Assembly: GCF_963506605.1 (NCBI RefSeq)
Contig: NC_083276.1
Coordinates: forward strand, 70,990,001 to 71,054,000
Direction of reading: 5' to 3'
Source of the DNA: Zootoca vivipara
Lineage: Eukaryota
Length of the DNA: 64,000 nucleotides
How positions within the stretch are numbered: position 1 is the first letter of the stretch; the number at the start of each line of letters is the position of its first letter. Below, one piece after another: positions 54,801 to 57,800 of the stretch. The notes under the pieces were generated by a model, which was given only the letters and a program-made list of their open reading frames with translations, did not search any database and was not told where the DNA came from. The position numbers and the translations under genes were made by a program.

Positions 54801-57800
54801 GTAGATAACCAAAAAACTTTGTAGTTAACAGTTTTAGAAGCTGCTAGCAGCAGAATCCTTACAATTTTTAGCTCTCCTCTCCAATCATATATTTGAGATT
54901 TCTTCATATGGGATAGAATTTCCTTTACATCCATCTTAACACTTTATCCAACTGATTTCAGACACAGCTGAAACTGCAAGAGAGTGCTTTATATCAGATA
55001 ACTCATCTCCTACAGATGCTACCACTACACTTGCAAGGTGCTTCTCTGGATTGCTCTGCAAATGCAGACATACTTTTGAGGTAGAGGCTTTAGAGCAATC
55101 ATGCTAAAGCTGTGTTCCCACTGGGAACAGACACGAAAAGCAGACCAAAATCTAGATGGCATGGAAGGCATTATGCTCTGAGAACTACGAACGGTTTGCA
55201 CCTCTATCTTTGCCAGTTGAAAGGCACTTGAAGATAACCATCCGCAGGTCCAGTCCTTCCTGTAACCAGATCTTGTCCATAATTTTTATCATTTGCAGCG
55301 CCAACATATCTTGACGCAGATCTTCTCCAACCTAGAACAAAAGTAAGGATGCAAATAGAGGGAATGACTTTCAACAGGACATATGTCATATGCTGGGGTG
55401 TGCATAGTCAACTACGTTTCTGCACAAGACCAGAAATGGGTGTTTGGCTTGAAAATTCAGTACTTCTTACTTGAAGATGAATGAGCAAGGCCTGGAAAAC
55501 CCCCAGAAACTCAGAGAACAGCATTCTGTGCTCGGGGTTTCGTTGCCATCTATAGCTCCTTCACGGGCATACCTAGGGTCCCTTGGCAAGTAGCTGTATT
55601 GGTGCCCCCACTCAATTACTTACTGCAACAGTCATACATGCCATAGGTATGTATCATAAAGCTAACTAGTTTTAAAAGATTTATCCAATTTATGTTACCA
55701 CAAAAGTATGCATGTCAAACACATACTGAAAAAATGTACCTTAAACATGACATTAATTTCTTCTCCCAAGGGATCTGCATTCACCAGAGCAAGTTTAAGA
55801 GGTACTGCATTAGAACTGAAGTAGGAACATGCCTGCAAAATATAATTTACATTAATTAACGGTAGACTAACTAGCAATACAAAGGCAATACTGCATTAGA
55901 ACTGAAGTAGGAACATGCCTGCAAAATATAATTTACATTAATTAACAGAAGACTAACTAGCAATACAAAGGCAATACTGCATTAGAACTGAAGTAGGAAC
56001 ATGCCTGCAAAATATAATTTACATTAATTAACGGTAGACTAACTAGCAATACAAAGGCAATACTGCATTAGAACTGAAGTAGGAACATGCCTGCAAAATA
56101 TAATTTACATTAATTAACAGAAGACTAACTAGCAATACAAAGGCAACCAAGGAGCTCCAACTATCTTTACAAGAAAATATTATAATTAATTTTGCTAAAC
56201 TAGCAAATAAGTGAACCACAAAGGATACAGAAGCCCAACTTAAAAGCAATATCTTTTTGTTATTTCTCATGGCTATATTGATGAAGTGAGGATGGCAGAT
56301 TTGCAGAGATTTGCATTGTATCATCTAACCCTGGTACCTCATTATAAAAATAGCAAAGTATGTTCCAACAGTATTATAAAGCTTTTTTATAATAAAAATA
56401 TGCTTGCATTTACTATACATATTTATATTATTCTTTATTTTCCCTCCTTTTATTGTTACTTATTTTGTATCTTATTAGCAATGTATCTTTTTTTAAAAAA
56501 AATATTTATCCTGCGCTCATGAATGCAGGGGGGGGGAGGGAACTTGCAAAGGAGTATGGCTTCAACAACTTCCCGTTTCTTCCTACAACTGTGCACCTAC
56601 GCAAATTTATTTTGACAGTTTAGTACAGTCGTACCTCGGAAGTCGAATGCCTTGCGAGGCGAACGTTTTGGTTCCCCAACGCCACGAACCCGGAAGTTAT
56701 TGTTCTGGTTTGCAAATGTTCTTTGGAACCTGAACATCCATCAGGGCTTTTGATTGGCTGCAGGAAGCTCCAATCAGAAGCAGCGCCTTGCTTCCCAAAC
56801 GTTTTGGAAGTCAGACTTTCAGAACGGATTCTGTTCAACTTCCAAGGTACAACTGTATTTGTCTTCAAATTTCACAAAGCACTGAAGTCAAGATGAGATT
56901 ACGCAAAAAATGTATGCGTATTTCTAATTATGGTGGTTTTATTTTCTTTAGCACTTTCAAAACCTGTGCCGAAAATTCACATAGAGAATTTTAGGTTCTT
57001 TCTTCTAGTTATTACTGGAACTTCCATATGCAGAGGCAACATGATTCCAAGTGCCATATCCTAGGGAGATAAAGGGAGGAGCGCTTGACTTCATGCCATA
57101 CTGTGAACTTCCAAACTGGACTGAGTGACCTTTCGTCTCATCCAACAATGGTTTTAATCATTTACAGTTTCAAGTCATTTGCCCTATGCCCGCCAAACAG
57201 TTTTGCTCTTTCCTGCTGGTTATTCTTGCATGTATTACTACGTGTGAGTACATACATATTATACTGGATTAGAAATCTAGACACACACCATACCTTGACA
57301 TTCAGTTCTTTAGCTACAAGGCTGGGACTGAGAGGCAAACGGCATTTGTTTTTTAAGAAAATGGACTGAACACGCTCCATTCCGCTTTGTAAGACAATCT
57401 GTTAATGAACATTACAAGGTTAAAATTGACCTGGATTAAGAAGTGATTTTAATTAGCAATACACATCTATATATATAAATGTAAACTGCGTATGTTCCTT
57501 CATCTCCAATGTTCAACAAAACCGCTTGACCGATAGCGTTGAAATTTGGACACGAAGTCAAATGAGACTACCTGAGTGACCCCATACCATTTTCAAAGAC
57601 AGATGTGTCACCTACGCCAGGTAAAACCCCCCAAACCCCATTTCAGAACTCACAAATCATACGAAAGTGCATGCTAGGAGCTCCACAGGAGAGATTGCAA
57701 CACAGCGCCCTCTAGCGACGGCTACACTGAAACTGCAACTAGTAAAGCTTCCCTCTCCACAGTATCTCGGCTTGGATTTGCAGACTGGGCCACTTTCCAG

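Follow-up and report, generated by a model that had tools for sequence, protein, structure and literature searches.

The window analysed here, a stretch of 64,000 nucleotides of DNA from Zootoca vivipara, carries exons of the kinase gene PIK3C2A on its minus strand, and at one of these exons the acceptor lies within a tandem repeat. The gene name had been proposed in a first-pass annotation made from the letters alone, and it is borne out by protein matches: a homologue search returned PIK3C2A proteins, and the exon upstream of the repeat matches solved PI3K-C2alpha chains (7BI2, 7BI4). The exons in the window translate to protein P0008 (source name Zootoca vivipara) without internal mismatch, and the tblastn pieces share 870 identities with this protein versus 851-857 with other lacertid proteins. 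As P0008 was probably annotated on the same sequence as the window, its normal junction at the repeat counts as a model and not as independent support. Additionally, a minus-strand open reading frame piece at about 36765-37070 resembles a ribosomal protein S13 exon; this gene is the usual neighbour of PIK3C2A, which supports orthology.

The gene is intact and single. Every exon of the 1700-residue protein is present with no internal mismatch or stop, the 5' exons being intact in stretches beside the window, and the window DNA has one match in the genome. The sole other genome match of the exon at the repeat is a 72% paralog exon on contig C7, which has no such array. A pseudogene or a spare second copy was rejected on these grounds. 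Other features of the gene include a minisatellite with 4.9 copies of a 120-bp unit in the long 5' intron, away from exon borders (L005:2362-2956), a 39-bp unit repeated 2.1 times in the intron at 58242-58325, stopping about 29 nt short of the acceptor at 58213 and leaving the AG outside the repeat, and a run of N at 61113-61254 directly before the exon at 61111-60936, the acceptor of which was left out of scoring.

The array itself spans 55803-56146 and was recovered by TRF with period 86, 4.0 copies, 97% matches, a score of 660 and no indels. Each unit, read on the minus strand, consists of 56 nt from the end of the intron and 30 nt from the start of the exon, so that acceptors lie directly ahead of 56090, 56004, 55918 and 55832, all four identical in their signals. 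The units are of two types, A and B, distinguished solely by the letters at unit positions 26 and 28, and a comparison of the array with itself at a shift of 172 gave zero mismatches over its whole length. TRF and the unit comparison thus confirm four 86-bp units in the order A/B/A/B with four acceptors, as first described, and the donor position given at that time, 57293, is indeed the first intron base past the upstream exon. The features are, in the direction of transcription:

57294 to 57398, minus strand: upstream PIK3C2A exon, 105 nt, with its donor at 57293 (protein match)
55803 to 56146, minus strand: 86-bp minisatellite, four units A/B/A/B (TRF and shift comparison)
56061 to 56146, minus strand: unit 1 (A), with a decoy AG at 56092-56091 (sequence; the upstream contig of X1 and X9 breaks at 56117)
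55975 to 56060, minus strand: unit 2 (B), with a decoy AG at 56006-56005; the frame opened by the first decoy meets its stop codon here, at 56045-56043 (sequence)
55889 to 55974, minus strand: unit 3 (A), decoy acceptor AG at 55920-55919 (sequence)
55803 to 55888, minus strand: unit 4 (B), with the authentic AG at 55834-55833 followed by 30 nt of exon start (sequence; a related species continues from here into unique intron)
55740 to 55832, minus strand: PIK3C2A exon, 93 nt, residues 1119-1149 of P0008 (protein match)
55758 to 55766, minus strand: purine-rich stretch GGAGAAGAA in the unduplicated exon part, a candidate splicing enhancer for the last acceptor
55202 to 55331, minus strand: downstream PIK3C2A exon, start of the Pfam kinase core region (protein match and Pfam)

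Splicing to the last acceptor yields the conserved exon, while each of the three upstream acceptors leads to ten correct residues followed by LPLYC and a stop, 48 nt past the decoy acceptor. The predicted decoy product has its stop at codon 1134 and ends at residue 1133, ahead of the Pfam kinase core (residues 1144-1357) and of the PX and C2 domains; translation and Pfam positions therefore uphold the earlier claim that the upstream acceptors truncate the protein before the kinase core. Stops lying more than about 50 nt upstream of an exon junction usually make a transcript a target of nonsense-mediated decay (NMD). The decoy stops lie 131, 217 and 303 nt upstream of the next junction and, by the usual rule, decoy-spliced transcripts are predicted NMD targets.

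The reality and copy number of the array were assessed in public sequencing runs, which were compared with two stretches, each comprising one unit and about 30 bases of the next. Eight of 23 runs were compared (X1, X4, X9, X13, X15, X17, X21 and X22), leaving out X23, X16, X18-X20 and the DNA runs X2, X3, X5-X8, X10-X12 and X14. The comparison covered three of the six conspecific DNA samples on the list, S1 (X1), S4 (X4) and S6 (X9), which come from three studies. In X1 and X9, the contig of unique upstream sequence breaks off at 56117, having covered 30 bases of unit 1; in simulated graphs with k=31, such an end arose only where a junction from a unit into an A unit existed (AA, ABA, ABAB and mixtures), and not from one copy or from AB. 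In X4, three contigs were found, namely the downstream unique contig ending at 55832, an 86-nt core and a 60-nt junction contig, with the core at 2.13x and the junction at 0.87x the flank depth, at an overall low depth of about 7. These contigs equal exactly the simulated two-copy AA graph, and the two diagnostic letters of the core are unlike B. An A/AAA genotype simulates to the same graph as AA/AA, so one-copy alleles are also compatible with X4.

The tandem junction was thus present in all three conspecific DNA samples compared (of six listed), and misassembly, the doubt raised in the first-pass annotation, is excluded for this junction, since the contigs of all three samples branch as a tandem array must. 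The array is confirmed as real and not an assembly artefact. Bin depth over flank was 4.00 and 2.73 in X1 and 2.10 and 2.01 in X9, and copies per haplotype were estimated at about 3.3-3.5 in S1, about 2 in S6 and about 2 in S4, against four in the window; these estimates derive from contig graphs and summed contig depth, a rough measure, and not from spanning reads. The array therefore stood in every sample compared, while its number of copies varies and is not fixed at four. Both X4 and X9 differ from the window in flanking letters. For X9 these are, in the unique intron, five single-letter differences plus several small indels, and X9 is therefore another haplotype than the window. No difference was seen in X1, from which the window sequence may derive.

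The related species (organism B) represented by X13 carries one copy: a single contig passes position 55888 straight into the unique upstream intron, with 29 of 30 loose letters matching 56147 onward. In the same contig, five extra intron bases at 55857-55858, absent from Zootoca vivipara, create an AG about 28 nt ahead of the acceptor. Variable copy number within the species together with a single copy in the related species identify the array as a young, length-variable minisatellite. It could have originated in a blunt 86-bp tandem duplication (A to AA), followed by two nearby substitutions that would have created B and by unequal crossover via three-copy alleles that would have given ABAB. 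No microhomology was found at the exact array ends. In an enumeration of crossover products, ABAB was unreachable by one unequal crossover of AB with AB or AA, but reachable when an allele of three copies recombined with AB. The 172-bp re-duplication first proposed from the alternation of the units was impossible in this enumeration as a direct doubling of AB in one unequal crossover, and has to be replaced by a route with a three-copy intermediate. The need for such an allele points to ordinary minisatellite turnover.

By its structure, the array belongs to a known kind of repeat, the 'mirage', a minisatellite over an intron/exon boundary. The repeat spans the boundary, the splice AG is kept and the length varies between haplotypes. 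Mirages are reported in amphioxus from Adh3, troponin C, the globins BflGb6 and BflGb9, and PGBD5, with units of 10-160 bp, length differences between haplotypes and, as summarised there, normal splicing (PMC3087553, PMC3902484). Like the lizard array, with its 86-bp unit within that size range, they are tandem boundary copies that keep the AG; BflGb6, with six and three copies on different haplotypes, is likewise length-variable, and somatic instability has been reported for the Adh3 mirage. The lizard array differs in lying in an amniote, in a kinase gene whose loss is embryo-lethal in mouse, in having only 2-4 near-identical units, and in being known here from DNA and not from RNA.

Related cases have been reported from human genes. 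The polymorphic CBS duplication c.844ins68 also copies an intron end and an exon start and creates identical tandem 3' splice sites, of which the distal copy is reported to be used (PMC2630376); it differs from the lizard array in having one extra 68-bp copy and G runs between the sites, on which the distal choice is reported to depend (PMC1802585). At the 37-bp VNTR over a splice site of F7 intron 7, identical pseudo-sites are described as functional but silent (PMC1557585), the site nearest the exon body winning, there on the donor side, unlike the acceptor side in the lizard. A duplicated exon-intron junction of FGG, similarly a tandem splice-boundary copy but 403 bp long and on the donor side, is reported to give aberrant transcripts and disease (PMC9052919), so tolerance of boundary duplications is not automatic. 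A search of titles and abstract openings found no paper on a PIK3C2A repeat in lizards, and a search for acceptor-side VNTRs found nothing related.

Taken together, we consider it probable that a minisatellite of the mirage kind has copied the PIK3C2A acceptor two to four times and that the spliceosome uses mainly the last copy, with a minor leak to the decoys cleared by NMD. By analogy with the amphioxus mirages and CBS 844ins68, dominance of the last acceptor with leakage into NMD is the most likely outcome. The local signals are consistent with such a choice. With 9 of 17 pyrimidines, the acceptor shares the lowest count among the 13 scored in this region of the gene, and its exon is flanked by introns of 1461 and 409 nt; a weak acceptor between long introns would be recognised across the exon. 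The exon measured to its donor is 93 nt from the last acceptor and 179, 265 and 351 nt from the decoys. Each decoy is followed by 30 nt of exon copy and then by AU-rich intron sequence (31-33% GC) with two UAG motifs, candidate silencers. Silencers placed between two 3' sites are reported to inhibit the upstream site (PMC2095810), and this sequence would be expected to dampen the upstream acceptors. Further, the unduplicated 63 nt of the exon hold its sole purine-rich stretch, a kind of motif absent from the unit, and GAGAAG is termed an enhancer in the same report (PMC2095810). The last copy, the only one at 93 nt from the donor and beside the enhancer-like stretch, would thereby be favoured, and the leak to the decoys would be minor and, as predicted from the stops, cleared by NMD.

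Published measurements bear on this mechanism in both directions: according to PMC9225289, long introns on both sides favour the sites nearest across the exon, but 3' sites prefer upstream positions overall and between long introns this preference is described as 'significantly reduced', not reversed, which speaks against exon definition as a full explanation. Other ways of silencing the decoys found no support. Neither unit A nor unit B contains GGG, so the G-run silencing of CBS is absent, and RNA folding in three window sizes gave similar openness at all four acceptors, so that structure hides the decoys no more than the true site. Selection offers a further argument. Mouse knockouts of Pik3c2a are reported to die as embryos (PMC6508738); as the repeat occurs in every sample examined and the gene is intact, enough normal mRNA must remain, and common alleles that use mostly a decoy are unlikely. 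Humans survive PIK3C2A loss, with a syndrome, which counts against the lethality argument for use of the last acceptor.

The RNA runs were searched for junctions. In the raw RNA runs X21 and X22, covering about 6% of each run, the upstream exon had a depth of 0 and no spliced read crossed the junction. X22 held five sense-strand reads over the tandem junction, all ending at 56133, which may be one molecule and are compatible with unspliced or decoy-spliced RNA. Contigs of X15 and X17, RNA runs by guess, showed nothing on the stretch, possibly a filter effect. The decoy tail occurred in 0 of 120 homologous proteins, mostly gene models of other species. In three of these 120 gene models (P0013 and two others), the previous exon is joined straight to this exon as Q-A-C-S, which may be in-frame skipping of the 105-nt upstream exon or annotation noise.

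Another way to read the array is as a dial, in which added units divert a measurable share of transcripts to decoys and NMD, so that alleles of two, three and four copies set the PIK3C2A dose as a cis splicing or expression QTL, selected or not. We regard this as unlikely, though it has support: copy number differs between samples, every decoy carries a full branch, pyrimidine and AG signal, with a stop that precedes the following junction by 131-303 nt, PMC9225289 reports a general preference for the upstream one of competing 3' sites, and the units lack a G-run silencer. Against it stand the published mirages, described without aberrant mRNA (PMC3087553, PMC3902484), and the RNA reads, which held no decoy junction, nor a junction of any kind. 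Of the poison/NMD dial suggested in the first-pass annotation, the variation in copy number that a dial needs was found and the stops lie far enough upstream for NMD, but conservation as a poison or regulatory element is contradicted by the single copy in the one related species compared. In its strongest form, a segregating ladder of two, three and four acceptors would tune PI3K-C2alpha dose in a wild lizard, each unit sending more transcript to NMD, and among amniotes this would be the first mirage on the acceptor side for which an effect of copy number had been measured; this too we hold to be doubtful.

The decoys could also be corrected during splicing. In such a recursive rescue, the upstream exon would be joined to a decoy, regenerating a GC-type donor from which re-splicing to the next acceptor would restore the normal mRNA. 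By a crude count, 7 of the 9 positions of the regenerated GC-type joint agree with the donor consensus, and the product, being normal mRNA, would be invisible in mature RNA. The same joint, however, is an ordinary exon junction that relatives with a single copy make in their normal mRNA as well, the K-A-C-S joint being found in 68 of 120 homologues (the search pattern matching 75 of 120), so it is a by-product of the coding sequence. GC donors are moreover rare and an 86-nt step is short. Additionally, the exon junction complex is reported to repress regenerated donors in vertebrates (PMC6224609), and we judge recursive rescue very unlikely.

Still less probable is that assembly contributed to the A/B/A/B order of four units and that real alleles are shorter. 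The B letters were seen in no run and are found in the window only, although the short array contigs of X1 and X9 were undisplayed and contigs drop rare variants, and S4 and S6 fit two A copies; against this, the tandem junction occurs in the reads of three samples, the depth of X1 requires more than three copies on average, and an array of 344 bp is small for a genome assembled in 48 contigs. Finally, the in-frame micro-exon of nine residues proposed earlier, from an internal GT 27 nt past a decoy acceptor, would preserve the frame but is barely credible, as its donor matches the consensus at 3 of 9 positions against 4-8 in 14 real donors of the gene (13 of them at 6-8, by a crude count) and lies inside a predicted 7-bp hairpin formed by the tandem junction, the remaining intron to the next acceptor is only 59 nt, and no duplicated SNAV motif was found among 136 homologous proteins, most of them gene models from other species.

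Use mainly of the last acceptor thus being the preferred reading, the array is likely a tolerated repeat of a described kind, and less likely a control switch. The locus offers a natural allelic ladder, with differing numbers of identical acceptors within one species and a one-copy outgroup. Such an allelic series allows a direct test of 3' splice-site choice, between the first AG and the site nearest across the exon, and the lizard case lets this choice be tested without the G-run silencer that explains human CBS. If it is true that the leak scales with copy number, the array would represent a simple mechanism for heritable variation in kinase dose, and would bear on how boundary duplications are judged in clinical genetics.
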